Shown here: one piece after another, positions 10,681 through 28,379 of the stretch
How positions within the stretch are numbered: position 1 is the stretch's first letter
How the letters are laid out: every line of letters begins with the position of its first letter
Assembly: GCA_045542335.1 (NCBI GenBank)
Contig: JAZQKV010000116.1
Coordinates: 1,433 to 65,432, forward strand
Source of the DNA: Eubacteriales bacterium
Lineage (GTDB): Bacteria; Bacillota; Clostridia; Oscillospirales; CAG-382
Reading direction: 5' to 3'
DNA length: 64,000 bases
The notes under the pieces: generated by a model
Databases searched by the model: none
What the model was told of the DNA's origin: nothing
What the model saw: only the letters and a program-made list of their open reading frames with translations
Program-made: the position numbers and the translations under genes

Positions 10681-10681
10681 G

Positions 10682-11767: not shown

Positions 11768-11885
11768 ATTCTTAACCTCCTGAAAGCTTCTTGACATAAT
11801 TTAATTATAGTGTTATAATAAGAAAAAAGGAATAGAATAAATTGACATAAATTTCAGCTTTATTGCTATTTTAGGAGGTTTTGAT

Positions 11886-12710: not shown

Positions 12711-12724
12711 ATACAGGAGAGCAT

Positions 12725-12822
12725 TTATATGTATACAAATTCCCGAAAAGCCTCATCGGCTTTATGTATTGCGTAAGGACTTCTTGCCTGTCACATCAAT
12801 TTATTCCCCATAAGTATTTAAA
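12725..12822 (-). pseudogene. decayed duplicate of the ADH-3'end / MBL-5'end junction (copy of about 10612-10707)
   Basis: Aligned by eye to 10612-10707 with many identities, for example CGGCTTTATGTATTGC and CCCATAAGTATTTA. On the minus strand it reads ..KYLWGIN* then VTGKKSLRNT*, versus ..KYLWEMK* and MTDKDLLMQYIKP in the intact copy. Confidence 0.6.
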
Positions 12823-12841
12823 ACCTTATATAAACAGCTGA

Positions 12842-13369
12842 TTATTTTCTGAGTCCTGTCCGACACCAACCGGACGATTGTAAGGTTTTTGATATCATTG
12901 ATACGAGAGAAATGCTTTCGTTCAACACTCCAACCCATGAGCCCACAATTACATCGTAAATTAAAAACGTAACTGAAATGGGTATGGAAAGCAGTCTTAT
13001 GTTTGCCGTGTTTTTAAAGGTCAGCGATACAGTCACTAAGGCTGATGCACATATGGGAACAAATTGAATATAAGAATCTGCCAATATGGTTGCAAGACCG
13101 GCATTTATTGTTATAAATATCGCCGCCCAGATGACCTTGGTGTATCTGTTTTTGAACTTTTTCATAAATACCAGCTCACGCACAATGCCCATCATATTGG
13201 GGATTGCACCGCCAATGGCAAACAGCATTAAATAATGAGCTGCCCAGATTATATCGGATGCGAGTTTAAAATACAGATATTTCATACGGTCGGATTGCTG
13301 ATACATTATGAACAGCGAAAGCATTCCGCAGGCACCAACTATTTGTGCCGCAAATTGTAGCTCAGTCAT
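12842..13369 (-). CDS. small multi-TM membrane protein (YgjV-like)
   Basis: Five to six predicted TM segments. ATG 13369 overlaps the upstream stop (ATGACTGA). Family assignment is from memory only. Confidence 0.45.
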   Translation of the reverse strand: MTELQFAAQIVGACGMLSLFIMYQQSDRMKYLYFKLASDIIWAAHYLMLFAIGGAIPNMMGIVRELVFMKKFKNRYTKVIWAAIFITINAGLATILADSYIQFVPICASALVTVSLTFKNTANIRLLSIPISVTFLIYDVIVGSWVGVLNESISLVSMISKTLQSSGWCRTGLRK

Positions 13370-14444
13370 TGTCAAAATCAATCCACCAATGCTTTACATT
13401 GACACGACCCTCATCATACGCGTCCGAAGCCTGAACGAGGATTCGTTTTTCGCCGCCAAAACGACCTGTGACACAGTTGTTGGAATAATACGCCATGGTT
13501 CCCCAGCCCTTGGGGAGAGTTATACGAACATACTCGCCTTCATCCCAGGTTAAGCCGTCTTTTGATGTATAAAGAACGAAGTTGAACGGAAGCTCATCGG
13601 TATTGTTGCCTGAACGACCATGCATAAAATAAATGCCGTTTGCCTGACAGATCTGAGGGTTTCTTATGCGTTTTGCAAAATATGCACTTGAAGGCTCTGA
13701 CCAGGTTTTGCCCATATCGTAGCTGATGCAATAATCAGAGTGGTATTCATCGTTTTCGTTATAGTTGTATACAATGAGTCCACCGTCGGGCAGAAGTTCC
13801 ATTGCACCATAGCTTCTGCCAAATGTATCAAAGGGGAGGATACTTAGCTCTTCAAAGGTCTCTCCGTTATCAGTGCTTGTGAAAAGTCTGTAAACGTGTT
13901 CGGGTTTGTTGCCTGTCCATTTGATTTCCGCATCATTGCAGAATTCAAGTGCATAGATTGTGCCGTCCTTATACATTACATCCATCACGCGACCTCGGTG
14001 ACCGGTCATAAATTTTGCCTCAGTCCAGGTTTCACCGCCGTCGAAGCTTCTCAAAACAGCGGGCTCAAGGTAAGGCTCCCAACGGGTGATTTGCTTGTTG
14101 CGTAAACAGAAAAGAACGATTGTGCCGTCATCTGTACATACTGCTTTTTCACAGCTGATATTGCAAACGCCGTCAATAAAGCATTTGTAGCTGTAGTCTA
14201 AGACTATCGGAGAAGACCAGGTTTTTCCGCCATCGGTTGTGCGTTTGTACTCCATCCAGCCATAGCCAGTATGACCGTGTTCAATAGCTGCAGATGTGTT
14301 GCTGAAGAAAGCTAATATGCTGTCTTTTGCATATTCCACCAAGGCATGACCCATGTGTCCGCTACGGTATACACTTTCGTTGTCAACAAACATTATTCCG
14401 TCATTCGGTATGTTGTCAGGCGTGGTTCTGAATTCTCTTGCCAT
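13362..14444 (-). CDS. BNR/Asp-box beta-propeller protein (sialidase-like glycosidase), with no signal peptide
   Basis: Repeated Asp-boxes: TTDGGKTW, SFDGGETW, STDNGETF, SYDMGKTW, SKDGLTW. Confidence 0.75.
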   Translation of the reverse strand: MAREFRTTPDNIPNDGIMFVDNESVYRSGHMGHALVEYAKDSILAFFSNTSAAIEHGHTGYGWMEYKRTTDGGKTWSSPIVLDYSYKCFIDGVCNISCEKAVCTDDGTIVLFCLRNKQITRWEPYLEPAVLRSFDGGETWTEAKFMTGHRGRVMDVMYKDGTIYALEFCNDAEIKWTGNKPEHVYRLFTSTDNGETFEELSILPFDTFGRSYGAMELLPDGGLIVYNYNENDEYHSDYCISYDMGKTWSEPSSAYFAKRIRNPQICQANGIYFMHGRSGNNTDELPFNFVLYTSKDGLTWDEGEYVRITLPKGWGTMAYYSNNCVTGRFGGEKRILVQASDAYDEGRVNVKHWWIDFDND

Positions 14445-15171
14445 TTTTTATTATCTCCTTGTCGTAAATGATTGTAGATTTTCCGTAACTGTGTAGGTTT
14501 TTAATGCCTGAACATTCCATGTGGTGCATTTTATCTGTTTCGGCATCTATTTGATTTAATGCACAAATCATGTCTTTGCATATATCTGACGTGAGAGGCT
14601 CGCAGCCATGTCCTTCAAATATGGTTTCAACACCGTATTTCCGAAGCTTGTCATAGAATGCCGATACTTTTTTTGCATATTGCTCCGGCATATCACAGGA
14701 GTCCCAACATAGCCAGGTTTCACGGTTTATAATATCGCCCGTTAATGCATAGCCGTCGTTTTTATTTATAAAACAAAACGCACCGTCTGTATGTCCACTG
14801 AGTGCATAAGCCTCAAGCACCGTTCCTCCAAGGTCGATTTTTTCGCCGTGTGAAAGAGGGATAAGCTTCAGTCCCTCCTCCAACATCCCGCAATCAGCCA
14901 TGCCAATGTGTATCTCATCGAAATATGAAGCGTTTCCAACGTGGTCACGGTGTCCGTGAGTCAGGTATAGTGCTATGGGGAGAGCTGTAAAACGCCGTAG
15001 CAGCTTTAATAATCCGGGGTCCTTTTGATTTCCTGCATCTATTAAAGCTGCTTTGCTTGTCCCGATAACAAGCTGCATACAAAAAACAATACTTTTATCA
15101 TCGTGCGACTCACAAATAACAACCAGTGAGTCGCTGACTTTTTTTGCACCAAGCATTTCTTTCCACCCCAT
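14416..15171 (-). CDS. MBL-fold metallo-hydrolase
   Basis: LTHGHRDHVGN motif and SGHTDG. The start was set at ATG 15171 (MGWKEML...) because the 5' extension to 15318 runs into the divergent promoter region. Confidence 0.75.
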   Translation of the reverse strand: MGWKEMLGAKKVSDSLVVICESHDDKSIVFCMQLVIGTSKAALIDAGNQKDPGLLKLLRRFTALPIALYLTHGHRDHVGNASYFDEIHIGMADCGMLEEGLKLIPLSHGEKIDLGGTVLEAYALSGHTDGAFCFINKNDGYALTGDIINRETWLCWDSCDMPEQYAKKVSAFYDKLRKYGVETIFEGHGCEPLTSDICKDMICALNQIDAETDKMHHMECSGIKNLHSYGKSTIIYDKEIIKNGKRIQNHA

Positions 15172-15300
15172 GTTATGTTCTGAATAAAGTATAGCATGAA
15201 ATATGCATTTTTTTAATAAATATAATCTTATAAATATTGACAATAATCTTGTATTGTGATATAGTAAAGCTGAAATATCACAAAAGCGGAGATGTATATA

Positions 15301-16146
15301 ATGAAAAACACCAATCACAGTGTCAATACAATGTCGGACAGATATTTACAAGTGAATAATTGCAGTATCCAGACGCGTGATAATGGTTTTGTCGTTAATC
15401 GTAGTGAAGGATGGCGTGATTATCACATTCTGCTGATTATAAGCGGAAAATGTGTAGCGACCCATAAAGGAAAAGAATATGTGCTGTTTCCCGGAGGTGT
15501 TGTTCTGTATGCACCGGGGGAAGCTCAGAAATACATTTTTCTTCACGAGTGTAAATCACTGTGGATTCATTTCTCAGGTACAGCAGTCGGGGAAATATTA
15601 GATTCCTGTTCATTGAAAAGCGGTGCATACCAATTAAAACCGGATAATTATCTGAATGATATTTTTTATAATGTTATAAAGAGATTTCACAATGAGAAAA
15701 CCACAGAATATACAAATGCATCTGTGATTGAATTATTGTGCAGTATATCTGATAGAATCCATAGTCCCCGTACGCAAAACTGCCCGTCGGGGATATACGA
15801 TGTGGCAAACTATATTACCCGGAACTACAAGGATGATTTCACCATTGAAGAACTGGCAAAAATATCGGGATATTCTAAAAGCAGATTCTCTTTTCTTTTT
15901 AAATATCATATGGACAAAACTCCGATGGAATTTCTAAGGGATATAAGGTTAAGCTCTTCACGCGATTTGCTTATATCCACTGACCTTTCCATCAGCGAAA
16001 TATCCTTATGCTGCGGATATGTTGATGCCCTTTATTACAGCAGGATTTTTAAAGAAAAGTACAGTGTATCTCCCTTGCGATATCGTAAAGAAGAAACAAA
16101 AAAACAGATGTGTGAAAGATGCGAAAACAATACTCATAACCAATAA
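15301..16146 (+). CDS. AraC family transcriptional regulator
   Basis: AraC HTH (SKSRFSFLFK..DKTPMEFLRDIRL..., GYVDALYYSRIFKEKYSVSPLRYR). Divergent from the MBL / sialidase-like operon. Confidence 0.9.
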   Translation: MKNTNHSVNTMSDRYLQVNNCSIQTRDNGFVVNRSEGWRDYHILLIISGKCVATHKGKEYVLFPGGVVLYAPGEAQKYIFLHECKSLWIHFSGTAVGEILDSCSLKSGAYQLKPDNYLNDIFYNVIKRFHNEKTTEYTNASVIELLCSISDRIHSPRTQNCPSGIYDVANYITRNYKDDFTIEELAKISGYSKSRFSFLFKYHMDKTPMEFLRDIRLSSSRDLLISTDLSISEISLCCGYVDALYYSRIFKEKYSVSPLRYRKEETKKQMCERCENNTHNQ

Positions 16147-16249
16147 AATCACTATGTTTTACCATACGCCTCTCAAAGTTGCGATGTTTATACCGTGAGC
16201 AAATATTTATATATATCGCATGACTGCAAATGATGTATAGTTTAAAGAT

Positions 16250-16285
16250 AAACAAAACAGCCCGTTGTTGCGGGCTGTTTTGTCG
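16250..16285. terminator. bidirectional rho-independent terminator
   Basis: ACAGCCCG / CGGGCTGT stem flanked by an A-run and a T-run. It lies immediately after spoIVB-fragment copy C on the minus strand. Confidence 0.7.
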
Positions 16286-16312
16286 CTTATTTAACTCAGC
16301 ACTCCCTGTATC

Positions 16313-16420
16313 CCCCATACCCTTTTTGCGGATCGCCCGCCATGACGCAGGTCACGGCTCCGATTATGCGATTGTCCTGAATTATGGGAGAGCCACTCAC
16401 GAGTAATGTCAATATTGGAC
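16313..16420 (-). repeat. copy C of the spoIVB 3' end (50-bp identical core 16350-16399, displaced 3' end and foreign arm)
   Basis: 16350-16399 is identical to 27081-27130 and to 23315-23364. It reads [29 protein letters not shown].. on the minus strand. Confidence 0.9.
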
Positions 16421-16427
16421 AGCAAAT

Positions 16428-18674
16428 CTATTTTTCGTCAAACACATTCTCCGCTCTCAAAATATAGGCATCCTGCTCTTTTTTGTTCATATTATTCCAA
16501 AGAGTATTCCATCCGCAGATCCGAACCTGTAAATTTTGATATTTACAGGGATTCATCTGTGCATCCCGAAGTGTTTCGGTGTTGAAAATATTAAACTGAA
16601 TCGACTGACCACCTTTATTAAGATAAGCCATAAGAATACCTTTCAGTACCTTTAATCCGTCCTCGCCGCTAACAGCACTTGGGTGAAGCATAACATCAAC
16701 ACAAAACGATTCATGGTAATCCGATGGAATGAGATTGGTTGCTGATTCTATTAAAGCTGTAATACCATTTTTATCCATTCCGATTACCGGGCTTGCGTTT
16801 TTTGAAAGTTCTTCACCGCTTAATCTGCCATCCGGCAAAGCACCGGTTTTTTCTCCTTGGTTTATAAAAGCACGGGCGGAGTGGAATATCGCTTTATACA
16901 CACCGCCTCTGCCATTAGGTACATTGTTGACCTTATTGGCAAAATAGCTTGACATAGCCGATGCGTAAGTATCTGCCACAGCATCGTTGTTACCATATTT
17001 ATGTGGTGATTTTTTAATTTTAATCTGTAATTTTTCGTAACCCTTCCAGTTAGCTTCCAAAACCTTTGCAAGCTCAGACAGCGTTATTTCTTTTTTATCA
17101 AAAACAAATTCTTTTATAGCCATAATGCTGTCAACCGCACTGGCAAAACCGCAGTTGAGCATAGCATTGTTATTGAACTTAACCCCACCGCCGTATCCGT
17201 CTTTGCCGTTTTTCAGAGAAGTTTCAATTGTTGCAGAATACATAGAAGAAGGATTTACAAATGCAAGAAAACGTTCTGCATCATTTGTGATTTTCATACT
17301 TTGCTCAATGAGATATTCCCATTGTTTTAAAAAGGCAAAGTAGAAATCTTCAAAGGTTTTGATTTCTGATAGCTCACCTGTTTTTACACCAACCTGCTTT
17401 CTGATTCCATGATCATAACCATTAGTAAACACAAACTCAACTGCTTTTGCTGCATTAACATAACCTGATGTAGAGCTGACTTCATTTGCCCTGACTCCTG
17501 TTTCATAACATCCTCTGATATCATAGTAAATCGCTTCTTCATAAGTAGCTCCATAACCCATTATAGCTTTTATCATAGCAGGCTCACAGCAAAATACAAT
17601 GCTTGCATTTTTGCGGCGAACCATATCAAATGCTTTATATAAAATTTTATCGGGTGTATTTTTATTTATCTTTAACTGTATTTTAGGGTTATAGATTTCA
17701 AGCTCATCATACACATCAAGAATTTCGTATGAAAGTTCGTTGTACTTTGTGTTATTGTTTATATCTGTACCGCCCATATAAAACGGCTGCCCCCAATAGT
17801 TACCTATAGCAGACCACTGCATCAAAAAGTAAGATAAATAATTTCTTATATCCTCTTTTGTGCATTTACCTGACTCCAAATCATTTTTATAAAATTTATA
17901 CAACGTATTATCGAGACCATTCCCCAAAGAACGCACCTGATAACTGTCTATGGATTCGGAAATGATAAAATATAGATAGATAAGTTGTAAAGCCTCATAA
18001 AAGCAAGTAGGTTTTCCGTCACGAAGATTTTTAAGGCAATCGGCTATAAGAGGTGCCTTTTCAAAGGTCAGTCCGCAAGCAGTATGATACATTCTGTCAA
18101 TTAAATCAATAATTGCCGTATATTGAATTTCAATGCCATCGAAGAAAGAATCAGTTTCTTTGGTCATTGTTCCGTTTTGGATATGTGTTTTGCGATAGTT
18201 TCTTGCTCTTTCCCGAATACCGTAGAAACCCAGTTCCATCAAAGATTTCCAGTCAGGCACAACATGGTCATAATCTGTCCCAATCATTACCGCACCGGAT
18301 TGATTAAAATCATTGGAGCACTCCATAGTATCGGAATTTCTTAAGGTGTATGATTCTTTTTCCCATTTTTTGAAGGTGCTTTCGTTAGCCAAACGATTAA
18401 GCGAATAAAGTCCTACAAAATAATCATGCTCATTGATATACAACCGTTCATTTGCAAGAATATACTTAATAGCTTTTGCCCTTGCGACAGGATGCGGTAG
18501 CTGTGCTGTCTCTTGAGAAAGCAATTCAAGTCCTTTTAATAATTCTTCATCACTCAAACCGCTTTCTTCCATATATCCCGTTCCGTGATATGCCATACGG
18601 GCAAAAGGGTTAAATTCTTTTTCAGGATCGTGATATTTTCGTTCAATAAAATATCTGTCTTCAGAATTAATCAT
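16428..18674 (-). CDS. glycyl radical enzyme (PFL2 / glycerol-dehydratase-like family), substrate unknown
   Basis: C-terminal glycyl-radical motif QVRICGWN (Gly codon 16512-16514) and Cys-loop IRGCYETG (C-x-E). The start was set at ATG 18674, with an AAAGGTGGAG RBS. Confidence 0.8.
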   Translation of the reverse strand: MINSEDRYFIERKYHDPEKEFNPFARMAYHGTGYMEESGLSDEELLKGLELLSQETAQLPHPVARAKAIKYILANERLYINEHDYFVGLYSLNRLANESTFKKWEKESYTLRNSDTMECSNDFNQSGAVMIGTDYDHVVPDWKSLMELGFYGIRERARNYRKTHIQNGTMTKETDSFFDGIEIQYTAIIDLIDRMYHTACGLTFEKAPLIADCLKNLRDGKPTCFYEALQLIYLYFIISESIDSYQVRSLGNGLDNTLYKFYKNDLESGKCTKEDIRNYLSYFLMQWSAIGNYWGQPFYMGGTDINNNTKYNELSYEILDVYDELEIYNPKIQLKINKNTPDKILYKAFDMVRRKNASIVFCCEPAMIKAIMGYGATYEEAIYYDIRGCYETGVRANEVSSTSGYVNAAKAVEFVFTNGYDHGIRKQVGVKTGELSEIKTFEDFYFAFLKQWEYLIEQSMKITNDAERFLAFVNPSSMYSATIETSLKNGKDGYGGGVKFNNNAMLNCGFASAVDSIMAIKEFVFDKKEITLSELAKVLEANWKGYEKLQIKIKKSPHKYGNNDAVADTYASAMSSYFANKVNNVPNGRGGVYKAIFHSARAFINQGEKTGALPDGRLSGEELSKNASPVIGMDKNGITALIESATNLIPSDYHESFCVDVMLHPSAVSGEDGLKVLKGILMAYLNKGGQSIQFNIFNTETLRDAQMNPCKYQNLQVRICGWNTLWNNMNKKEQDAYILRAENVFDEK

Positions 18675-18786
18675 ATAATCTCCACCTTTCAGACATATTT
18701 TATCACAAAAAGAAATTAGTTTCAATGAATTAAAGAAAACACTTGACTTTTTAGAAACTAAATGATATAATAAATACGGTGATTAT

Positions 18787-19557
18787 ATGATTGATTTTAT
18801 GAAACAAGATTTTATTGTTGAAAAAATTGAGCTTGCATGTTTAGTAAAAGCCGGAAAAGGCACATTGATTCACAAAAACAGAGCAAGCCATGGACTGGCT
18901 TTGTTTTTAGGTGGAGAGAGAATCTTCTGTTTTGATGAGAAAAAAATCAAAGTTAATAAAAACACAATCGTGTATTTCCCAAAAGGTTCAAACTACATAA
19001 TCAAAGAAAGAGAATCTTCTGATTGCTATGCAATTAACTTTCAAATGCCTGATAATGTAGTTTTTGAGCCGTTTGCATTTAAAATAAAAAATCTTAACAC
19101 ATATTTAGAAAGCTTTAAAAACAGTCAAAAAATATGGGATAAAAAAGCGACGGGTTATTTGTTGAAGGTTAAATCTGAGCTTTACAGCATAATTTACAAT
19201 ATGCAGTCAGAATATGTTATTCCTTACGGTAACACATCAGTAATTCAACCTGCTATTGATTATATACACTCAAATTATTATAAAGAGAACATAAGTGTTG
19301 TTCATCTGGCTTCGCTCTGCAATATTAGCGTTGTGCATTTAAGAAACTGCTTTATTAAGGTCTTTGCCATATCTCCTGTCAGATATATAAATTCTCTTAA
19401 GTTAACCCGAGCAAAAGAGTTGCTTGAATCAGGGCTTTATACTGTTGGTGATGTTTGCTTCTTATCCGGCTATAATGACGAAAGCTATTTTTCTCGTGAG
19501 TTCAAAAAAATTTTTAAGCTATCACCAAAAGAATATGTAAAAGCATCCCGCAAATAG
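18787..19557 (+). CDS. AraC family transcriptional regulator
   Basis: AraC HTH (SVVHLRNCFIKVFAISPVRYINSLKL..., GYNDESYFSREFKKIFKLSPKEY). Divergent from the GRE gene. Confidence 0.9.
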   Translation: MIDFMKQDFIVEKIELACLVKAGKGTLIHKNRASHGLALFLGGERIFCFDEKKIKVNKNTIVYFPKGSNYIIKERESSDCYAINFQMPDNVVFEPFAFKIKNLNTYLESFKNSQKIWDKKATGYLLKVKSELYSIIYNMQSEYVIPYGNTSVIQPAIDYIHSNYYKENISVVHLASLCNISVVHLRNCFIKVFAISPVRYINSLKLTRAKELLESGLYTVGDVCFLSGYNDESYFSREFKKIFKLSPKEYVKASRK

Positions 19558-19572
19558 CAGGATGCTTTTTCT
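19541..19572 (+). terminator. rho-independent terminator after the AraC gene
   Basis: GCATCC / GGATGC stem, then TTTTTC. Confidence 0.5.
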
Positions 19573-19573
19573 G

Positions 19574-19660
19574 TCACTTTATTCTTTCAGCCTCAGCCAG
19601 CATATTCTCAATAAAAACGCCATAGCCCTTTGTCGGCTCGCTGCAATTACGCAGTTCACA
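19574..19660 (-). repeat. copy D of the spoIVB 3' end (diverged, lacks the core)
   Basis: 19599-19640 aligns to 27025-27066, with the first 20 nt identical and about 37 of 42 identical by eye. The minus strand reads ..EPTKGYGVFIENMLAEAERIK*, against DPQKGYGVFIENMLSEAEKMK* in SpoIVB. Confidence 0.75.
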
Positions 19661-19692
19661 AGAAACTAAAACCCGTATCGGCAAAGCTATGG

Positions 19693-21318
19693 TTAATTGC
19701 AAAACAAAATCTCAACAGATATTTTTTTGTTTGCAAATCTTGTAAAGTTGATATACGATGACTCACCGATAAGCTCGGTTTCAAAAACAGCCTCGTCTCC
19801 GTTTATGAGGAGCTTTGCGCATTTTCTGCCTTTCGGGAGAAGTATGTGTGCCTGTATTTTCTTTGCAGGAGAGTATACATCATATCGCATCCCCTCGTCG
19901 GTCAGGATATACCGCACGTCTACCAATGCTCCGGTTACTTCATATCCCGTCAGGTAGCGAAGCTCGGTATAGTATGTAACAGGAAATTTAGGCGCAAAGA
20001 ATATTTCATCGTAATTGACACCCATGTCATTGATGCCCGCAAGAGCCTCGTCAACCGCGCTGACAAGAGCTGCAGCACCCCAAGCACTCGGACCGCCCTC
20101 AGGCTGCGGTTTGCCGTCGGTGTCGTAAAGGAAATAGATAGTTCCGTCACGCTCCACAAGCTCTATAAAACGCTGAATGATATTCCATCCGTATTCCTCA
20201 TACCCGTTGTTGAGTGCGGCTTTTGCAAGCTCTCCTGCAGTGAACGGAGAGATAGCACCGTTGACATACCTGCCTTTTTTGTAAGTATGGAATAACTCAT
20301 ACGGAGGATCAATTGTAAACCACTCCGCAAAGCATCCGGTGCGTTGCCGTCTTGCCATGTATTCCTCAATAATCGCCCGGGATTGCTCTGTATCGGTTAA
20401 GCCTCGGTTGATATCGTAAGTGTTGGAAAGAGACAGACGCTCATTTTCAAGGTTATCGATGCCGTCGTGATTCAGGTGTAACTGATGAATAAAGAATTTT
20501 CCGTTCCAAAGATGCTTGAAAATGTTTTCTTTCAAAGAAACGGCGCGGACTTCCCATTCCTTTGCTTTTTCCTCGTTTCCAAGACGGCGATTGAGCCAGG
20601 CGAGCTGACGCATTGCCTGATACACACCTGAATTGTCACCGTGCATAATGGACATAGGGCTGTCGGGATTTATTCTGCGGTTGATGCCTGCATCGGGAAG
20701 ATAGGTGAAATCCCATGTGTCGATGGTAAAAGGCCTTTTTACAAGTCCGTGTTCTTTATCAAACCGTTTTTCGTCGGACATTATGTAATCAATGCCCTTT
20801 TCAAGCTTTGGTAAAACCTTTTTCAGCCATTTATCGTCGCCCGTTGTCCTGTAAAGATAAACTGCACCTTCTACCACAAGATATTCAATATCCGCCTCAA
20901 GCTCCAGACGCACGAGTGAAAGGTTGTCGTCGGGATACATCACATAGCAGTCCTCGTTTACAAAGCTCCAATGCTTGTCATCGACTTGCTTGATCAGCTC
21001 ATAAAACTGACCGTCCTCACGTTGCGTTTCAATGATAAAATCCAGAAAGGATTTCAGGTCATACTCCCAATGCCGCATTGCTTTCATCACATGAACATGG
21101 TCACGGATCCAGTTTTTGTCGGTCATGAGGATTTTGCCGTCGATAAAAACAAGACTCCTGTCGGCTAAAATATTGCTTTGCATCTGATGTAAAAACAGAC
21201 CGAGCTTGGGGTCGGTAGTGGTGAGAATAGAGGGAAAACCAAGCTCACGGTTGTTGTATGTACCGCAGAGAACATTGTTTATCCTCATGGCAGGGAGCTT
21301 GTGCTGAAATTCAATCAT
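19693..21318 (-). CDS. six-hairpin (alpha/alpha)6 glycosidase-like protein with a C-terminal beta-sandwich
   Basis: The start was set at ATG 21318 (MIEFQHK), with a GGAGAG RBS. Overall resemblance to rhamnosidase/trehalase-type six-hairpin enzymes is from memory only. Confidence 0.5.
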   Translation of the reverse strand: MIEFQHKLPAMRINNVLCGTYNNRELGFPSILTTTDPKLGLFLHQMQSNILADRSLVFIDGKILMTDKNWIRDHVHVMKAMRHWEYDLKSFLDFIIETQREDGQFYELIKQVDDKHWSFVNEDCYVMYPDDNLSLVRLELEADIEYLVVEGAVYLYRTTGDDKWLKKVLPKLEKGIDYIMSDEKRFDKEHGLVKRPFTIDTWDFTYLPDAGINRRINPDSPMSIMHGDNSGVYQAMRQLAWLNRRLGNEEKAKEWEVRAVSLKENIFKHLWNGKFFIHQLHLNHDGIDNLENERLSLSNTYDINRGLTDTEQSRAIIEEYMARRQRTGCFAEWFTIDPPYELFHTYKKGRYVNGAISPFTAGELAKAALNNGYEEYGWNIIQRFIELVERDGTIYFLYDTDGKPQPEGGPSAWGAAALVSAVDEALAGINDMGVNYDEIFFAPKFPVTYYTELRYLTGYEVTGALVDVRYILTDEGMRYDVYSPAKKIQAHILLPKGRKCAKLLINGDEAVFETELIGESSYINFTRFANKKISVEILFCN

Positions 21319-21341
21319 TTTTGTCTCTCCTTTTGTGAAAT

Positions 21342-22208
21342 TTACAGTATACCTATTATGATTATTCCTGCTATGCCAAATACAAGACCTGTCAACTGCC
21401 TTGCGGATATCTTTTCTTTGAAAAATATCATGCCAAAGATTGTGGATAATACAACTACACCGCCGTTGAAAGCAGGAAAGAATATGACACCGTCGAGTAC
21501 CCCTGAAAGGTAAATGTTCAGCCTGTTGTAAAGACAGCTTAACAGCCCCGATATAAGGGCAAGAATGATAAATAAGTGTTTTTCCTGCTTTGAATTCGGA
21601 TTGGAGCATGAAGTAAATCCACCTGTGAAAAGACAGATTGCCGTGTAAGAAATGAGCATGACAAACGCCGCAATTATCATCATATCCGAGGTGTATTCCG
21701 AGCCTCCGCTTTTTGAAAACGCCTTGAAGGTTATGCCCACTCCTGCGGCAAAAATGAGAAACAGCAGGGAAATCACCGCCCATTTTCTTGTGAATACACC
21801 GCCCGATTTCTTGTAAGTGGTAAGGGAAAGACCGAGCATCAGAAGCATAAGCCCTGCAATATCGGCAAGAGAAATAGGCTCTTGCCACACAACAAAGCAC
21901 ACAATCGACGATACAACAAGCGAACAGTTGCCGATAAGTGTCGTCACCGACACAGGACCGCTGTTCATGGCAGCGGTTTTAAATAAGATAAAAAGAGACT
22001 GCATGATTCCGTAAATGCACCCCCAGAGCAAAGCACCCGATTCGAAATGTAATGCGCCTCCGTTTGCAATAAACAGGCATACACACCATACCAATGCACC
22101 CAATAGGTTGAATCTGTATATCGAGCCCTTTTCCGTCAGCCTTGCTTTGTGAAGAAGTGTGCTGTTCAGCGATGCGGCAAGTATGGAAAACGGCAATAAA
22201 ACTGTCAT
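21342..22208 (-). CDS. DMT superfamily (EamA/RhaT-like) 10-TM transporter
   Basis: About 10 hydrophobic segments in a duplicated 5+5 layout. Sits upstream of the glycosidase-like gene in the same operon. Confidence 0.6.
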   Translation of the reverse strand: MTVLLPFSILAASLNSTLLHKARLTEKGSIYRFNLLGALVWCVCLFIANGGALHFESGALLWGCIYGIMQSLFILFKTAAMNSGPVSVTTLIGNCSLVVSSIVCFVVWQEPISLADIAGLMLLMLGLSLTTYKKSGGVFTRKWAVISLLFLIFAAGVGITFKAFSKSGGSEYTSDMMIIAAFVMLISYTAICLFTGGFTSCSNPNSKQEKHLFIILALISGLLSCLYNRLNIYLSGVLDGVIFFPAFNGGVVVLSTIFGMIFFKEKISARQLTGLVFGIAGIIIIGIL

Positions 22209-22377
22209 GTGTTTCTCCCCTTTGATATTTTCTGCCTATATTCTATCACAAATCGTCAGCAGTTTGAATGCCGGTATTCACCAATATTATGCGATTTTTG
22301 AGCATTATATTGACAAAACCCCTTCAATTTGATATAATATATGCGAATTTTCATTCTTTTGCAAGGGGGCAAGTCTT

Positions 22378-23175
22378 TTGACATCGGTGTTGTACGAATT
22401 TGGTGAGATGGTTCACGGGCAACAAAAGAATTTTATTTTTCAATTCATAAAAGGCAGAAAGCTGACAAATATTTATCACTCGCACGATTTTTACGAGTTC
22501 ATTTGCTTTTTGCGTGGAAGCGGAACGCAAATTGTCAATGATGAAGAAATCCTGACGGAAGAAAAAACGGTGATGCTTTTATGCCCCGGAGATAAGCATT
22601 GCTTTGTGGATCAGTCACGGAACATAGAAATACTTTCTCTGTCGGTAAGACGTGAAACTTTCGAGCTTTTGTCAGATGTGTACGGAATATCCTTCATGCA
22701 AAACCCCATCCGCTTTGCTTTTCCGCGAATTTCGGGGCTGTACGATATCTGCGGAGAAAACCGTCCGATTACTGAAAACGATTGTACGCTGATTCTATCA
22801 ACATTGTTGCACGCATATACCGGGATGAAGAACCGTCAGAGCCGCACGGACATACCCGAAGAACTTTTCAATGCCGTTGTGGAAATGAAAAAAAGAGAAA
22901 ATCTGAAAACAGGCATCCCGGCATTTGTTGCTCTGTCAAATTATAGCCACAGTCATCTTTCAAGGCTTGTGAAAAAACATTTTGGCATGGGACTCAAAGC
23001 ATATATAAACGAGCAGAGATTACTTTGTGCGTATGACGATATCCTCTGGACAAACGAGTCTGCCGAGGTTATTTCGGAAAACCTCGGATTTTCAAGCTAT
23101 AGTCATTTTTATAAAATATTTAAAGAGAAATTCTCCGAATCTCCCTCATCTTTGAGAAAGGGTTTTAAAAACTGA
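22378..23175 (+). CDS. AraC family transcriptional regulator
   Basis: AraC HTH (SHSHLSRLVKKHFGMGLKAYINEQRL..., GFSSYSHFYKIFKEKFSESPSS). TTG start is uncertain. Confidence 0.85.
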   Translation: MTSVLYEFGEMVHGQQKNFIFQFIKGRKLTNIYHSHDFYEFICFLRGSGTQIVNDEEILTEEKTVMLLCPGDKHCFVDQSRNIEILSLSVRRETFELLSDVYGISFMQNPIRFAFPRISGLYDICGENRPITENDCTLILSTLLHAYTGMKNRQSRTDIPEELFNAVVEMKKRENLKTGIPAFVALSNYSHSHLSRLVKKHFGMGLKAYINEQRLLCAYDDILWTNESAEVISENLGFSSYSHFYKIFKEKFSESPSSLRKGFKN

Positions 23176-23190
23176 AAAAAGCCCTTGCGT

Positions 23191-23227
23191 AAAGGATGGA
23201 GGCCTGCATAGCAGACCTCCATCCTTT
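23191..23227. terminator. 12-bp-stem hairpin between the AraC gene and spoIVB-fragment copy B
   Basis: AAAGGATGGAGG / CCTCCATCCTTT stem. The T-run is only on the minus side and is displaced. Confidence 0.45.
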
Positions 23228-23258
23228 GCACAATGAAGACTTTTACGTCGCCGCATTC

Positions 23259-23390
23259 AGCATATTCTCAATAAAAAACCCATAACCTTTTTGCGGATCG
23301 CCCGCCATGACGCAGGTCACGGCTCCGATTATGCGATTGTCCTGAATTATGGGAGAGCCACTCACGAGTGTGTCAATATGGGACAATATT
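23259..23390 (-). repeat. copy B of the spoIVB 3' end (50-bp identical core 23315-23364, displaced 3' end and foreign arm)
   Basis: 23315-23364 is identical to 27081-27130. The minus strand reads [40 protein letters not shown]. Confidence 0.9.
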
Positions 23391-23403
23391 TTTAACATAA
23401 ACT

Positions 23404-25356
23404 TTATTTCCATTTTTCAGGAGTAGGATATTTATGGTCAATCCCTAAGAGTTTTATACAGTACTTGAATTTTTCAATTTCTGAATCTTCAGGTGTTCTT
23501 GCTTTGTGAGAATTATCCGAACAAGTCCCATCCTTTATATGCCACCATCCAATATCCTTAAAATGATAAGATTCGCTTTCGCCGATACCGCAATTAAAGG
23601 CGTCAGGACTTGCAACACCTTGAGTCAGAAGCACTTTAAACTCGTCAAGATGCTCGGTGTAAACTTGGCGTGGAGTGCAGTTGTATTTTTTGCAAATTGA
23701 ACTTGCCAATCCCACAACCTCGCCAAGCTCTCCGAGAGTACGCATAACCCTGACGGCAGAAAATGCCACATGACTGGTGCTTACAAGACGGCCCCCGATA
23801 AACAGATTGTCGGCATCTTTTGCATACAGACAGCGGTAAGGCATGGGATAAGGGATAGGAAATCCTCTGTGATATGCAAAAGAACGGAACGCCTCTCCAA
23901 ACTCTTTTTCATTGGTCGGGTCGGGGAAGTGCATATCAATGCTCCATGTAAGACAAGCTGTTGCATCATCGTATATAACCGTGTTTTCAATATCATTCTG
24001 CGTAAGGATGTAGTCACCTTTTACTCTGTAACCTTCTCTTTTGCCACCTATATGAGATACCCATTTCAGTTCAAGATTTGCAAATTTTTCTTTGTCTTTA
24101 AAATGATGTTTCTGATACGCCCAATTCGAGTAAATGGCTCTTAAACCGTAATCGCGGATATACTCAATTTCATTGACCATATCTTTTCTGAAACCGGTTT
24201 CCTGCTCCCAGTCTCCGGATGTGCAATTTAGACATGAGTTATCATTAAAGGCTAAATTCCAGTCAATATCAGGGAAATCTACTTTATTTTCACGTGCTTC
24301 GCTATACCAGCGGATAGAATGTCCCATAACCAGATTCTGATGTTCTTCCGGTGCCAGTGATTCATTAAATTCATCCTTAGATTCTCTGCCGTACATAGTC
24401 TGGCATCCCATTTTTCGTGCAAGAACAGCATCTCCGCTGCAATCTGCAAATGTATTTCCGATAATTCGCGTTTTTTTCCCGGTTACAGTATTTGTACATA
24501 TAATACCTGTAATTTTTTTGCCGTCTCTTTCTATATTTGACACGAATTCGTTTGTGAATATTTTGCAGTCTGCATACTTTTCTTCTTTGACCTGAAAAGC
24601 AGCCATTTTTCTATAATCTTCATAACATTCTTTTTCATATATGGAAGGGTATCCTACAATCGGAGCAATCTCTTTTACGATTTTTCCCAAATTAGGATAT
24701 GGCGGTAAATTAATCATGCCGCCCATGCAAACACGGATTTCACTGCTGTTGCAGCCCCCTAATATGGAACGGTCGTTGATAAGGGCAACGTGAACACCTT
24801 TACGAATTGCTGAAAGAGCTGTACAGATTCCTGCAATACCGCCGCCAACAACAACAAGGTCGAAAGTTTCGGGACAGTCTTGGATTTCTTTCCAGTTAAG
24901 CTCTCTTCTCATTTCATCTATAGAAGGAATAGCACTGTCCGGAGTTTCATCTGAAGCTGTAATATAAATGGCATCGCATCTGCCGTTAAAGCCTGTCAAG
25001 TCATGAAGTGAGATGCTGTGTGTGCCTTTTTCAAGCTGCACTTTGCCTGCAAACTGCCATGCCCAGTCTTTGCCGTTTGTTCCGAGAATTTCAGAAAGCT
25101 CAATGCCGTTAAGTTTTATTGTAAACTTTCCTGCAGAGTCCTTTACATCCCATACAGCAGTCCAATCCCTTGTAAGGGCATAGATGCTGTAGGTTCCGTT
25201 ATTGGTAATTTCAAAATCGGTAAAAGCATCTTCCACCGGACTACCCATTCCGTGTGCCATAAGGTATGCTGAATGTATCGTTTCCATGGATGCGGTATCT
25301 ATAACCCACCCGCCTTTGTTTTTAAAACTTTCTGCCTCTATGAATATATTATTCAT
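23404..25356 (-). CDS. FAD-dependent oxidoreductase with an N-terminal CBM-like beta-sandwich domain
   Basis: Dinucleotide-binding motif [16 protein letters not shown]...[10 protein letters not shown]. The roughly 150-aa N-terminal domain resembles carbohydrate-binding modules. Confidence 0.7.
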
Positions 25357-25367
25357 AATATCTCTCC

Positions 25368-26072
25368 TTAAAGTGGATTTACCTGTTTGTCAATCCCCCA
25401 TACGGTAACATCTTCAACTACAGCACGCTGCGGAAGGTTTGCTATGTACAACACTGTTTCAGCAATATCCTCAGGGAGCAGCTTGTCAGTAGTTTCACCT
25501 ATGCCGCACGCACTCTGGAAGCCCGTGCTTGCAGATGAGGGGACAACACAAGTAACTCTCACATTGTACGGCTGCATTTCAAGATACATTCCTTTTGAAA
25601 AGTTCAGCACACCTGCTTTTGCCGCAGCATAAACGCTCCATGTAGGCCAGCACTGACGGGCACAGACAGAGGAAATATTTATCATTGTACCGGTTTTTTG
25701 CTCTTTCATCATACCGGAAAATGCACGGCATCCGTAAATTACGCTGTTTAAGTTGAGTGTGATTGTTTCATCAATTTCTTCGGTTGAAAATTCACTTACT
25801 TCCTTGATAGTCACACCGCCGCCTGCGTTATTTACAAGTATGTCAAGTCTGCTGTATTTTTCCTTAACAATCTTTACAGCATTTTCCCAATCCTGCGGTT
25901 TTGTAACGTCCATTGAAAAGGCAAGGTCTCCGCCAACCTCTTTTCTTGCCTGCTCAAGCTTGTCATAATTTCTGGCGGTCATAATAACGGTGTCACCGTT
26001 ATCCTTAAAAGCTTTGGCGATTGCTTTTCCGTAGCCGCTCGATGCGCCTGTGATTAATACAATTCTTGACAT
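25368..26072 (-). CDS. short-chain dehydrogenase/reductase (SDR)
   Basis: TGASSGYGKA cofactor motif, NNAG, and the catalytic YAAAK. Confidence 0.9.
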   Translation of the reverse strand: MSRIVLITGASSGYGKAIAKAFKDNGDTVIMTARNYDKLEQARKEVGGDLAFSMDVTKPQDWENAVKIVKEKYSRLDILVNNAGGGVTIKEVSEFSTEEIDETITLNLNSVIYGCRAFSGMMKEQKTGTMINISSVCARQCWPTWSVYAAAKAGVLNFSKGMYLEMQPYNVRVTCVVPSSASTGFQSACGIGETTDKLLPEDIAETVLYIANLPQRAVVEDVTVWGIDKQVNPL

Positions 26073-26085
26073 GATTTTCAGTCTC

Positions 26086-26901
26086 CTATTCTATTGGTAT
26101 TCTAATCTCCCACTCAAAATCTTCTTCTGACATATCAAAAGGATAAACCTCAACTGTGGGTATATTTTTATTTCTTTTTAAGTTCGCCGAAGGCAACCAT
26201 TCATAAATGATTTTGCAGTACATTTCGTTTACGATATCATCATCTACAGTATTTAACGTAAAACAAGCCCACCTTGATGACGGTATTTCCTGACCTTTAT
26301 CTGATTTTTCTCCTATACTGCAGCTTACGTTTTCGCCTTGATTCAGGTAGGACACATAAATTTTGTCCGTATTAAGAGCCTTGTCGGCTCCACTTTCGTA
26401 AAATGCATTCCACACATCCTCACAGCAACAGCTGTCAGTGATGGGGGATATGCCCGAAAATCCGTTTATACAAAATGCATCGGTTTTAATAAGCCTGAAA
26501 GGTACATCCTCTCTGCCTGAAATACTTACAGAAAAATTAGGACGGGTAAAAAGATTTATTGTCGGAGTTTCATTAAGGCAGACGCTTGGAGCTACACCAT
26601 GATGTTCTTTAAATGCTCTTGCGAATGCTGATTGGTTTGAATATCCGTATCTTTCGCTTATTTCTGATATATCTGCCTTGTCTGACGAGATAATTTCAGC
26701 AGCGGCAAGGGAAAGCTTTCTTTTGCGGATGTATTCAGATACCGGACATCCTACCACAAATGAAAATATTCGCCTGAATTCATAAACCGATAAAGTCATT
26801 ATTTTTGCCATTTCATCATAATCAAGCTCTCCCATCAGATTAGATTCAATGTAGTCAATAACATCTTCTATTTTTTTGATTCCGTCGTACATTTTTCTCA
26901 C
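26086..26901 (-). CDS. AraC-type HTH regulator with a GyrI-like effector-binding domain
   Basis: N-terminal HTH (SVYEFRRIFSFVVGCPVSEYIRKRKL..., GYSNQSAFARAFKEHHGVAP) plus a C-terminal GyrI-like region. First gene of the minus-strand SDR / FAD-oxidoreductase operon. Confidence 0.8.
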   Translation of the reverse strand: MRKMYDGIKKIEDVIDYIESNLMGELDYDEMAKIMTLSVYEFRRIFSFVVGCPVSEYIRKRKLSLAAAEIISSDKADISEISERYGYSNQSAFARAFKEHHGVAPSVCLNETPTINLFTRPNFSVSISGREDVPFRLIKTDAFCINGFSGISPITDSCCCEDVWNAFYESGADKALNTDKIYVSYLNQGENVSCSIGEKSDKGQEIPSSRWACFTLNTVDDDIVNEMYCKIIYEWLPSANLKRNKNIPTVEVYPFDMSEEDFEWEIRIPIE

Positions 26902-26964
26902 ATCCTTTATTATATTATAACATATAATTTTAAAAATGGTTTATCTTTTTTTGCACTATAAAGT

Positions 26965-26997
26965 AAATGCTCGCCTATATCAGATAGACGAGCATTT
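26965..26997 (-). terminator. terminator after spoIVB
   Basis: AAATGCTCG / CGAGCATTT stem directly after the spoIVB stop on the minus strand. Confidence 0.5.
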
Positions 26998-26999
26998 TC

Positions 27000-28379
27000 C
27001 TATTTCATTTTTTCTGCCTCCGAGAGCATATTCTCAATAAAAACCCCATAACCCTTTTGCGGATCGTTAATCATGACGTGGGTCACGGCTCCGATTATGC
27101 GATTGTCCTGAATTATGGGAGAGCCACTCATGCCCTGAACAATGCCTCCGGTCGTTTCTATAAGCGCCGGGTCGTCAACTTCAAAAACAAAGTTTTTGTT
27201 AGTGCCGTCATTTTTATAGATTTTTGTGATGTTTACAGAATACTGTTTAGTTGCGCCGTCAACGGTTGAATATATCTCGGCTTTGCCCTCGTGAATGCTG
27301 TCGGAAAGGGCAATGGGCAGAGCCTCGGGGGCGGTTGCAGGATCATATGGCGGCTTGTCGAGCTGCCCGAATACTCCAAGAGGCGTGTTTTGCAAAAGCG
27401 AACCTCGGCTGATGTTGCCAAATGTGCCTTTTAATTCTCCGGGTCGCCCCTTTTCTCCTTTTATGACATCGGTTAGAGTTATATCGACTATGGTCGCTCT
27501 GAGAAGTGGCATAAGCTTTCCTGTGTCAATGTCGCAGATTCCGTGCCCGAGCCCGCCGAACATCCCCGTTTCCGGGTCATAATAGGTCACAGTTCCAATG
27601 CCTGCTGTGCTGTCCCTTATCCATAAGCCGGATTTATATTTGCTTCCCGATTCGGAAAGTGAAAGAACAGGCAGCAGAGAGGTTTCAAGTATCTCTCCGT
27701 TTCTTTCAAATTCAATCGGTAACACCGAGCCTTTTGCACTTTCAATTAGAAACGCCGCATCCTCAACGGTGTTGACCTCGATGCCGTTGATTTTTCGGAT
27801 TGTGTCAGCCTGGCGAAGTCCTGCCTTTTTGGCAGGATTTATTTTTCCGTCTGAAGTCTGAACATCGCTTGTGCCTACAACAAGTACACCTTTTGTGAAG
27901 AATTTTACGCCAAAAATGCTTCCGCAGGGTATAAGTCGGACATCCGGATAGATTTTAACGTCAACCTCTTTGACGGCAAAGTTGCCAACCATGGCTTTGA
28001 CATTGACATTTGTTTCGTGAGAGGAGCTTTCCTTGACAGATGTGTCGGGGAGGGCTTGACCGCTTTTGTCATTACTTTCGTGAGCATCTTGTTGTGGCGT
28101 CACCTGCGCTTCAATTCCGCTTTGTATGCCGGCAGCATTAAGACTTTCCGAAAGCTGCTCCTTTGCTGAACCTCGAATGTTGTTGCTTTGCAGACCGACA
28201 TATGCAACGCTGTCAGGTATCGAAAGATCCGCCGCACCAATAACCATTGTTGCGCATATGGCAAGAGTCACTACCGCAAAAAAAGCATAATGCCCTGCGG
28301 ATGTGTGCCTGTGTGGGGCGCGGGTTGTCACCTTTTTTGCTGCCCTTGTCGGCTTGCCTGAATTTTCCTCATTTGGCAT
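27000..28379 (-). CDS. spoIVB: SpoIVB, stage IV sporulation signalling serine peptidase (S55) with a PDZ domain
   Basis: N-terminal TM segment, PDZ region (GLRQADTIRKINGIEV), and S55 catalytic region (GGLGHGI..., [25 protein letters not shown]). Confidence 0.9.
   Translation of the reverse strand: MPNEENSGKPTRAAKKVTTRAPHRHTSAGHYAFFAVVTLAICATMVIGAADLSIPDSVAYVGLQSNNIRGSAKEQLSESLNAAGIQSGIEAQVTPQQDAHESNDKSGQALPDTSVKESSSHETNVNVKAMVGNFAVKEVDVKIYPDVRLIPCGSIFGVKFFTKGVLVVGTSDVQTSDGKINPAKKAGLRQADTIRKINGIEVNTVEDAAFLIESAKGSVLPIEFERNGEILETSLLPVLSLSESGSKYKSGLWIRDSTAGIGTVTYYDPETGMFGGLGHGICDIDTGKLMPLLRATIVDITLTDVIKGEKGRPGELKGTFGNISRGSLLQNTPLGVFGQLDKPPYDPATAPEALPIALSDSIHEGKAEIYSTVDGATKQYSVNITKIYKNDGTNKNFVFEVDDPALIETTGGIVQGMSGSPIIQDNRIIGAVTHVMINDPQKGYGVFIENMLSEAEKMK

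Follow-up and report, generated by a model that had tools for sequence, protein, structure and literature searches.

Displaced spoIVB gene ends in the window

The window analysed here is a stretch of 64,000 nucleotides from a Eubacteriales bacterium (contig JAZQKV010000116.1, positions 1,433 to 65,432 of the forward strand), and our subject is its sporulation gene spoIVB, together with the displaced copies of the 3' end of that gene and the AraC-linked gene cassettes lying downstream of it. The gene is a minus-strand open reading frame (ORF) at 27000-28379, encoding 459 aa with PDZ and Peptidase_S55 domains (Pfam). The ORF is complete and its S55 domain intact, so the gene is not split as it would be by a skin-like element. 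According to an initial annotation, a 50-bp stretch of spoIVB recurs at two further sites in the same orientation, and this was confirmed: the block, GGTCACGG...CCACTCA, has exactly three mismatch-free occurrences (16350-16399, 23315-23364 and 27081-27130), all in one orientation, where shuffled sequences give an expectation of 0 matches. The copies labelled B and C, which had been described as diverged but still in frame, are indeed in-frame relics of the last ~40 spoIVB codons with stops of their own, and their homology to the live gene, said to end near the catalytic GMSGSP codons, ends at the first base of the Met codon of that motif. A fourth and more diverged copy, D, was likewise found as described, comprising the C-terminal ~22 codons and the stop (..SEPTKGYGVFIENMLAEAERIK*) and lacking the 50-nt block, the end motif presented below and the proximal part. 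Each of the copies A, B, C and D (A being the end of the live gene) has its own stop codon and hairpin. The features of the gene ends, all on the minus strand, are as follows.

27000-27131, minus: copy A, the live spoIVB end (43-codon end)
27129-27131, minus: ATG (Met) codon of GMSGSP, an attL/attB-like junction; homology of all relics to the live gene starts at its TG
27081-27130, minus: 50-nt block in the live gene, identical in A, B and C, interpreted below as an array-specific homogenised tract
26965-26997, minus: terminator hairpin after copy A, of the spoIVB type (AAATGCTCGTCT...AGGCGAGCATTT), conserved across species
23366-23387, minus: element-end (P-arm) motif at copy B, ATTGTCCCATATTGACACACTC, with an A/T-rich extension to ~23393
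23243-23365, minus: copy B, displaced spoIVB 3' end, 40 codons and stop, with His to Cys in AVTHV
23185-23233, minus: hairpin after copy B (inverted-repeat pair)
19539-19642 (coding ~19577-19642), minus: copy D, C-terminal relic of ~22 codons with stop and terminator hairpin
19539-19569, minus: hairpin after copy D (hairpin search)
16401-16423, minus: degenerate end motif at copy C, GCTGTCCAATATTGACATTACTC, 4 nt after the stop codon of a glycyl-radical enzyme gene
16296-16400, minus: copy C, displaced spoIVB 3' end, 34 codons and stop, truncated after KGYG
16251-16284, minus: strong terminator hairpin after copy C (hairpin search)
12695-12726, minus: second spoIVB-type terminator (AAATGCTCTCCT...AGGCGAGCATTTT; also given as AAATGCTC..AGGCGAGCATTTT), no coding relic, candidate ancestral spoIVB terminator

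Beyond the 50-nt block, copies A and B are identical at 47 of the next 60 nucleotides, and they diverge for good only after ...GAGAATATGCT. The relics B, C and D have TGC (Cys) where all other SpoIVB ends seen have His (AVTHV to AVTCV), and B and C additionally carry MAG instead of MIN. The hairpin after copy C, which had been suggested to be the ancestral spoIVB terminator, is probably not that, the conserved type being found after copy A and at 12695-12726. The latter terminator is located 3.6 kb past copy C, beyond a module of AraC, metallo-beta-lactamase (MBL)-fold, BNR and YgjV genes.

A conserved end motif at the junctions

The C-terminus of SpoIVB was used as a tblastn query against 49 spoIVB loci from species-representative genomes, whose hosts are uncultured Oscillospiraceae/Eubacteriales with SpoIVB proteins 37-57% identical to that of the window. 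Extra downstream gene-end copies were found in loci L002 (two), L012, L021, L046 and L032, and the complete ones all begin at xSGSP. The DNA between the copies encodes ROK/YgjV/GH2, AraC/GH32/PfkB, GH32 alone, or IrrE/DUF4417, with no recombinase gene among them. Directly upstream of every complete relic, including B and C of the window, lies a conserved motif, GTTGTCCCaTATTGACAtCAcTC (consensus of 27 distinct junctions), which abuts the xTG; its two occurrences in the window (23366-23387 and 16401-16423) were not recognised in the initial annotation. An A/T-rich stretch precedes it, and the conserved end signal is ~25-35 nt long. The window motifs deviate from the consensus at 2 positions before B and at 4-5 before C, and the motif of D is lost.

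The xTG of the GMSGSP Met codon is the starting point of the relics, both in the window and at over 40 junctions of other Clostridia, insertion thus being at a constant nucleotide, as for an integrative element dependent on a large serine recombinase (LSR). When metagenome contigs were scanned with a degenerate pattern requiring, besides the motif, only TG..GG....CC downstream of it, 21 loci were obtained, 20 of which run on in frame as the SpoIVB C-terminus. The junction is therefore a specific and widespread signature, and not the generic intergenic repeat which the initial annotation had named as one way in which its reading could fail. In many independent cassettes, a gap of 4-20 nt separates the stop codon of the cargo from the motif (4-16 nt in the window).

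The motif is partly palindromic (GTTGTC-N7-GACAAC). As single-stranded DNA its region folds no better than shuffled sequences (z from -1.9 to +0.4, with only a 4-7-bp stem), and it therefore looks like a binding site for a protein on duplex DNA, while an attC-like hairpin was ruled out on the same grounds. A promoter was also considered, as the motif contains TTGACA, and ruled out: there is no consistent -10 element, and transcription would point into a dead relic.

Two kinds of isolated motif were also encountered. In L025, spoIVB is followed by a cassette (11197-12265) with a single gene, for a TIR-domain protein; this cassette has a perfect motif at its end, with no spoIVB relic behind it. 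The viral contigs L071 (12106-12127) and L072 (10207-10228) each carry the bare motif TTGTCCCTTATTGACAACCATC, with neither a spoIVB relic nor an LSR nearby, and these matches are probably due to chance.

Cassettes between the gene ends

The gene content of the modules between the copies, as assigned with Pfam, is that described in the initial annotation. Each cassette can be written as [spoIVB-like gene end + terminator]-[cargo, often with a divergent AraC]-[motif], followed by the displaced gene end. Cassette 1 is bounded by junction A and by the motif plus copy B, and cassettes 2 and 3 are bounded jointly by copy B and by the motif plus copy C. The last ~5 spoIVB codons and the terminator are co-inherited with cassette 1.

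23366-27016, minus: cassette 1 block, consisting of gene tail and terminator, cargo and end motif
26086-26901, minus: cassette 1, AraC-GyrI/Cass2 regulator (Pfam)
25368-26072, minus: cassette 1, short-chain dehydrogenase/reductase (SDR) (Pfam)
23404-25356, minus: cassette 1, flavin adenine dinucleotide (FAD) oxidoreductase (Pfam), stop codon 16 nt before the end motif
19693-23175, both strands: cassette 2 cargo, AraC, EamA and MGH1-like glycoside hydrolase (GH)
22378-23175, plus: cassette 2, AraC (Pfam), consensus promoter match at 22310-22338
21342-22208, minus: cassette 2, EamA transporter (Pfam)
19693-~21300, minus: cassette 2, MGH1-like glycoside hydrolase (Pfam)
16424-19557, both strands: cassette 3 cargo, AraC and glycyl-radical enzyme
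18787-19557, plus: cassette 3, AraC (Pfam)
16428-18725, minus: cassette 3, glycyl-radical enzyme (Pfam), stop codon 4 nt before the degenerate motif
12727-16146, both strands: possible fourth, older cassette, AraC, MBL-fold, BNR/sialidase-like and YgjV
15292-16146, plus: fourth-cassette candidate, AraC (Pfam)
14416-15318, minus: fourth-cassette candidate, MBL-fold (Pfam)
13362-14444, minus: fourth-cassette candidate, BNR/sialidase-like (Pfam)
12842-13381, minus: fourth-cassette candidate, YgjV (Pfam)

The array may extend further left, to the fourth and older cassette, because the spoIVB-type terminator recurs at 12695-12726. L061 carries a homologue of its BNR protein (47% identity) as cargo beside the motif, and L002 has YgjV among its cargo. 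No further degenerate motifs were found left of copy C, where the only trace is the terminator relic at 12.7 kb. The GC content is lower across 6-30 kb (~0.36-0.42, with one 2-kb bin at 0.45) than in the core-gene part at 30-64 kb (~0.43-0.48), and the whole AraC-rich region from clpC to the SLH protein gene has the look of horizontally acquired DNA.

The absence of a recombinase from the window, as stated in the initial annotation, held up. No recombinase, integrase or transposase domain was found by Pfam in the ~44 main non-nested ORFs of at least 150 aa, and tblastn of six LSR proteins against the window gave no match, not even to LSR pseudogene fragments beside the motifs.

The divergent AraC genes of the cassettes are preceded by near-perfect sigma-70 promoter matches at 22310-22338 (12/12), 18743-18771 (11/12) and 15237-15265 (11/12), each with an extended TG. 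For the glycyl-radical enzyme of cassette 3 (16428-18725), no activating radical-SAM gene is present in the cassette or nearby.

Large serine recombinase genes beside the junction

While the window array encodes no LSR of its own, related elements elsewhere do. In L050, L052, L054 and L069, three tandem genes on the same strand (encoding ~535-607 aa) stand directly before the motif, and each of the three encoded proteins shows the domain order typical of LSRs, Resolvase + Recombinase + Zn_ribbon_recom. Such trios end 3-75 nt before the motif in these four loci as well as in L073 and L074-L078, and partial or decayed trios precede it in L053, L055, L060, L062, L064 and L065. The search for a cognate recombinase that the initial annotation had recommended is thereby answered, with the motif-plus-relic junction directly following tandem LSR genes in at least 13 loci. 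In the loci reached via homologues of the first LSR (L074/L075 and L076-L078), the trio closes a larger element and is then followed by the motif plus relic; these larger elements carry DUF3854, a ParM-like ATPase, HTH proteins, a sigma-70 region-4 protein, HTH_16 and DUF6870. Since the motif in the window matches that of the LSR-bearing elements, its cassettes are flanked by attachment (att)-type sites and devoid of a recombinase, in the manner of cis-mobilizable elements (CIMEs) or of pseudo-elements of the staphylococcal cassette chromosome (SCC), and the suggestion that they are non-autonomous is borne out, cassette 1 having also been found in the arrays of other hosts.

The position of the crossover can be read from cases in which the same element occurs in different hosts. 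L076 and L077 share an identical element through ...TTGTCCTTCTATTGACACAAGCGTGAGCGG, and host-specific sequence starts right after GTGAGCGG; past the relic, one of them continues directly with spo0A and the S10 ribosomal operon, and the other with YfhO and then spo0A. In L052, L053 and L054, the third LSR (LSR-C) is 97-98% identical and the P arms are identical, while the relics are mutually different. Taken together, these same elements with differing relics locate the crossover at the relic's 5' edge, inside TGAGYGG, and identify the relics as the displaced gene ends of the hosts. The LSR-less cassette 1, shared by the window, L081 and L086, is a further case of one element in several hosts. 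A crossover at the 3' edge of the 50-nt block was considered as a general rule and discarded, given that near-identical LSR elements diverge right after GTGAGCGG.

Decay intermediates which still have the motif plus relic include L053 (oriented, 5076-7398), with a truncated LSR-B and an intact LSR-C, and the frameshifted LSR-C genes of L065 and L069 (4076-5652). The record MT836038.1 (L073) was considered as a native phage attP and rejected, being a chromosomal junction of LSR trio, motif, spoIVB relic and cob genes. Although labelled 'Bacteriophage sp.' in a faecal virome, it is a fragment of a bacterial chromosome, with cobT/cobU-type genes and a PP-loop ATPase gene (possibly tilS).

Cassettes exchanged between hosts

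The SpoIVB proteins closest to that of the window are only 56-57% identical to it, and their loci (L079 and L080) are empty sites, whereas relatives of the cassette 1 FAD oxidoreductase are 96-98% identical. The whole AraC-GyrI/SDR/FAD-oxidoreductase module sits inside other spoIVB arrays (L081-L084 and L086), and the nucleotide identity over window positions ~27016-23366 is 97.75% to L086 and 94.8% to L081-L084. The shared block comprises the last ~5 spoIVB codons, the terminator and the cargo up to the last base of the motif, and identity collapses exactly at CTCGTG| in both comparisons. For L081, the host gene is on the contig, and its SpoIVB is 42% identical to that of the window. The rank of the cassette varies too: it is first in the window and second in the L081 array of at least 6 copies, where it comes after an IrrE/DUF4417 cassette, while in L086 it comes after a cassette with AraC and a 362-aa protein, so that its neighbours differ between arrays. 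By block identity, by the distance between the host genes and by varying rank, cassette 1 has thus moved as a unit.

Other cassettes behave similarly. The IrrE/DUF4417 cassette is common to L012 and L081, with 91% identity from the junction on, although the upstream spoIVB bodies are not alignable. More distant versions of cassette 1 (73-78% aa identity) in L087-L089 have the motif plus relic on both sides, and an AraC/EamA/MGH1-GH module like cassette 2 is also present in the L081 array (68% nt identity). The cassette polymorphism among relatives that the initial annotation called for is seen in L021 and L046, which match at 93.7% identity over 10 kb as far as the spoIVB terminator and become homologous again from the relic on, with unrelated cargo in the same slot (GH32 in one, two unknown proteins in the other). 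On these comparisons, the cassettes are discrete, horizontally exchanged units.

The L081 array (3367-21953, also in L082-L084) packs at least 6 gene-end copies into 17 kb, one truncated relic being fused into another cassette, and contains a ~0.55-kb cassette segment that is duplicated internally (88% identity). LSR-less cargo of a defence-like kind was seen in L057 (oriented, 402-5845: DUF5986, HTH-IrrE, KilA-N and metallophosphoesterase) and in L012 (11161-13860: IrrE and DUF4417).

Nature of the 50-nt identity

The initial annotation had taken the identical 50 nt to be the recombination core, and this part of its reading is not upheld by the comparison of arrays. The identity blocks between copies differ from array to array, being absent in L002 (0 nt), 50 nt in the window, ~60 nt in L021/L046 and more than 100 nt in L012. 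Copies B and C of L002 are identical distally and different proximally. An exact 40-nt core had no match in metagenome and viral contigs, so the identical core is specific to this genome and not a shared att core. What is invariant at the junctions, as far as the aligned copies tell, is the 5' boundary at xTG and not the identity block. The simplest reading of the alignments is that the 50-nt block is an array-specific tract homogenised by gene conversion or concerted evolution, rather than a recombinase core. The Cys signature of B, C and D could likewise reflect gene conversion among relics, or a variant that formerly served as the live end; selection would keep a defective variant out of the live copy. 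The same data leave room for the exchange of cassettes by homologous recombination, with the IENML block and the motif as anchors.

Proposed mechanism and alternatives

We consider it probable, at about 0.78, that the region from 27.1 to 16.3 kb (possibly to 12.7 kb) was built up by tandem accretion of three or four spoIVB-targeting cassettes which lack a recombinase and belong to the LSR-trio element family. The initial annotation had proposed repeated site-specific integration at the spoIVB 3' end by elements carrying a replacement end, and the junctions, the LSR trios and cassette 1 all support that view. In the mechanism proposed here, the LSR trio would recombine an attP-like element site (motif | TG + spoIVB mimic) with a site in spoIVB (attB), with the crossover falling within TGAGYGG. 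The incoming element would bring a new gene end and terminator, leaving spoIVB intact and displacing the old end downstream. Because the P' arm of the element mimics the B' arm of the gene, attL would resemble attB and attR would resemble attP; the junction in the live gene could consequently accept the next element, the newest cassette being placed beside the gene, and cassettes lying between such sites would be excisable and re-insertable by LSRs acting in trans. Mobilisation of the cassettes would then depend on a cognate LSR supplied in this way. Partial homogenisation of the array copies by gene conversion would produce the identical 50 nt and the His to Cys change shared by B, C and D. 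The window fits such last-in-first-out accretion, in that cassette 1 is adjacent to the gene, has near-identical copies elsewhere and possesses the best-preserved motif. With no LSR in the window and with decaying motifs, the cassettes would currently be stranded, the array serving as an accessory-gene island of AraC-regulated catabolic modules.

Several observations weigh against the accretion reading. The window itself has no LSR. Neither a circular nor an attP form was found: the exact-core scans of viral and metagenome contigs were empty, and the only record labelled as phage that holds the trio is a chromosomal junction. The left (attL) junction of an LSR-bearing element was captured on no single contig. 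The proximal ~110 nt of the preceding spoIVB copy were not co-inherited with cassette 1 in the three contexts compared; as this part is array-specific, a TG-to-TG cycle alone is insufficient, and gene conversion or homologous exchange is needed in addition. The window motif of cassette 1 is also less conserved than its cargo (3 differences in 23 nt, against 2.25% overall).

A further-reaching form of the accretion reading, which we put forward tentatively and regard as rather doubtful, is that spoIVB in a family-level group of gut and rumen Clostridia acts as an integron-like cassette platform run by serine recombinases. Compact cassettes ending in a 25-nt signal would be excised, captured at the live-gene junction and reshuffled by the LSR trio of a visiting element. 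The three LSR paralogues could match three half-sites, namely the B arm on the gene side, the P arm of the element (the motif) and the shared B'/P' arm, and the reaction would be intrinsically reversible without a directionality factor.

The main rival concerns how the cassettes move, and not the origin of the junctions. LSR elements would have made the junctions, and the LSR-less cassettes would have spread by RecA-dependent homologous recombination of incoming array DNA rather than as circles, with the two short blocks of highest conservation as anchors, namely the motif and, close to the end of the gene, ...TATGGnATATTTATTGAGAATATGCT. This is unlikely as the main route. In its favour, high identity over cassette 1 (window against L086 and against L081) sets in only near the IENML codons and the terminator rather than at the TG, and the proximal ~110 nt are array-specific. 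Mosaic copies speak for it as well, those of L002 being identical distally only and copy B of L046 being fused and devoid of a motif, and homogenisation within arrays shows that homologous exchange among copies does occur. On the other hand, the right boundary of the cassette 1 homology lies exactly at CTCGTG| in both comparisons, and the cassette common to L012 and L081 was co-inherited from the TG junction on. The stop of cargo 4-20 nt from the motif in many independent cassettes suggests that the motif is a functional element end, and the proposed anchors measure merely ~25-30 nt.

It is improbable that each cassette is instead the decayed remnant of a separate full-size LSR element, such as an integrative and conjugative element (ICE) or one that is integrative and mobilizable (IME), stripped by deletion and never moved alone. 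Intermediates of the kind expected do exist in L053 (truncated LSR-B beside an intact LSR-C) and in L065 and L069 (frameshifted LSR-C), and the window motifs are off consensus, with that of D gone. The LSR-less cassette 1, however, has the same boundaries in at least 4 arrays at differing ranks, which independent decay would not reproduce, and the window, where cargo abuts the motif within 4-16 nt, retains no LSR pseudogene fragments beside its motifs (tblastn).

Still less credit is due to the idea that the motif palindrome is used by another enzyme, with the LSRs as coincidental cargo. The candidates would be tyrosine recombinases (those of the Xer type from the host, or others) and an integrase similar to that of integrons, working on single-stranded DNA in folded form. 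The dyad symmetry of the motif is of a size typical for tyrosine-recombinase core sites. Yet the LSR trio is the gene set consistently beside the motif in autonomous-looking elements, the live gene lacks a half-motif, which puts the crossover outside the palindrome, the motif region shows no folding beyond that of shuffled sequence, and the search of the window and of the examined cassettes gave neither IntI nor a tyrosine recombinase. Finally, a local duplication (tandem or segmental) at the 3' end of spoIVB, with later divergence and insertion of unrelated DNA and with no mobile element involved, could account for the array-specific His to Cys of B, C and D and the identical 50 nt of A, B and C, but is effectively refuted by the sequence comparisons, which show a conserved foreign motif at every boundary, recurrence in many species with the boundary always at one codon, LSR trios adjoining the junction and horizontal transfer of cassette 1.

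Comparison with known systems

The closest functional analogue of the accretion array is the SCC/pseudo-SCC composite island at rlmH. There, LSRs insert cassettes at the 3' end of rlmH (orfX), direct repeats demarcate the elements, and ccr-less elements join composite islands (PMC7029136). The spoIVB arrays are alike in the proposed insertion by LSRs into the 3' end of a conserved gene without destroying it, in the gene-end repeats demarcating the elements and, as with ACME (arginine catabolic mobile element) and pseudo-SCC, in recombinase-less cassettes with adaptive accessory cargo standing in tandem with or without recombinase-bearing ones. They differ in their target, which is not rlmH (orfX) but the catalytic-serine codons of spoIVB, ~130 nt before the stop, and in carrying a 43-codon end and terminator where SCC has a ~18-bp repeat. 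There are three LSR paralogues rather than ccrAB or ccrC, the likeness to Ccr resting on Pfam architecture. They occur in uncultured Clostridia of the gut and rumen, with smaller cassettes (1-4 kb) and with arrays of 6 units or more (L081).

Serine integrases in sets of three have been described in streptococcal ICEs and in ICEs and IMEs of Firmicutes (Ambroset et al. 2016, PMC4701971), where the elements target mutT, traG or hsdM, disrupt the gene and leave 2-8-bp repeats (PMC4701971); tandem arrays of integrative elements have also been discussed (PMC7192596). In common with these elements, the spoIVB family has three tandem LSR genes (Resolvase + Recombinase, with or without Zn ribbon) at one element end, oriented alike relative to the target, and enters a protein-coding gene site-specifically. 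Here, by contrast, spoIVB is restored by the element-borne end and LSR-less cassettes accumulate.

With integrons, the arrays share compact, recombinase-less cassettes, a conserved recombination signal right after the cargo ORF, ranks shuffled between hosts, and cargo including defence and metabolic genes. They have no IntI tyrosine recombinase, attI or Pc, and regulators, promoters and terminators are supplied by the cassettes themselves. Neither beside spoIVB nor elsewhere in the window was a tyrosine recombinase found, and the motif region does not have the folding of an attC site, being no better in this respect than shuffled sequence.

Accretion of non-autonomous, att-flanked elements in tandem beside the target is also seen for CIMEs and ICEs at the 3' end of fda in Streptococcus thermophilus. 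Those arrays, and the ones at tRNA and tmRNA genes, grow by re-use of a regenerated site, and they use tyrosine integrases and identity cores, unlike the spoIVB arrays, whose cognate enzymes would be serine recombinases and whose repeat is a long, partly homogenised coding segment. The skin element in sigK and SPbeta in spsM are LSR elements which split a sporulation gene and must excise in the mother cell. The likeness lies in a sporulation gene being targeted by an LSR-using element, and the difference in spoIVB remaining intact, with no excision required.

The logic parallels that of SCC composite islands and of CIME accretion, and is no new principle; the target is new and highly conserved, and the population of recombinase-less cassettes is rich. 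The initial annotation knew of no description of spoIVB as a hotspot, and our literature searches gave no link between the gene and integration, an attachment site, an island or a recombinase. The catalytic-serine codons of spoIVB thus emerge as a new and widely used hotspot in uncultured gut and rumen Clostridia, for which the element family and its end signal have been identified. Small modules without a recombinase are exchanged there among hosts that are only distantly related, and pile up in arrays that run to at least 6 units; their cargo is either sugar and redox operons under AraC control or defence-like genes such as TIR and IrrE. The motif together with the SpoIVB C-terminal relic constitutes a searchable signature for accessory-gene islands in metagenome-assembled genomes. 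The family also provides naturally occurring LSR/att pairs whose chromosomal target is highly conserved, and a case in which one can test why three serine recombinases are present in some elements.

Other features of the window

Two large ORFs of the window, outside the array, have unusual domain combinations. A single 1364-aa ORF at 58120-62214 comprises a full carbamoyl-phosphate synthase large chain and a C-terminal diaminopimelate epimerase domain, and may be a CarB-DapF fusion. In an 818-aa ORF at 42432-44888, a xylose-isomerase-like TIM barrel (AP_endonuc_2) is joined to an AMP-binding enzyme of the acyl-CoA ligase type.

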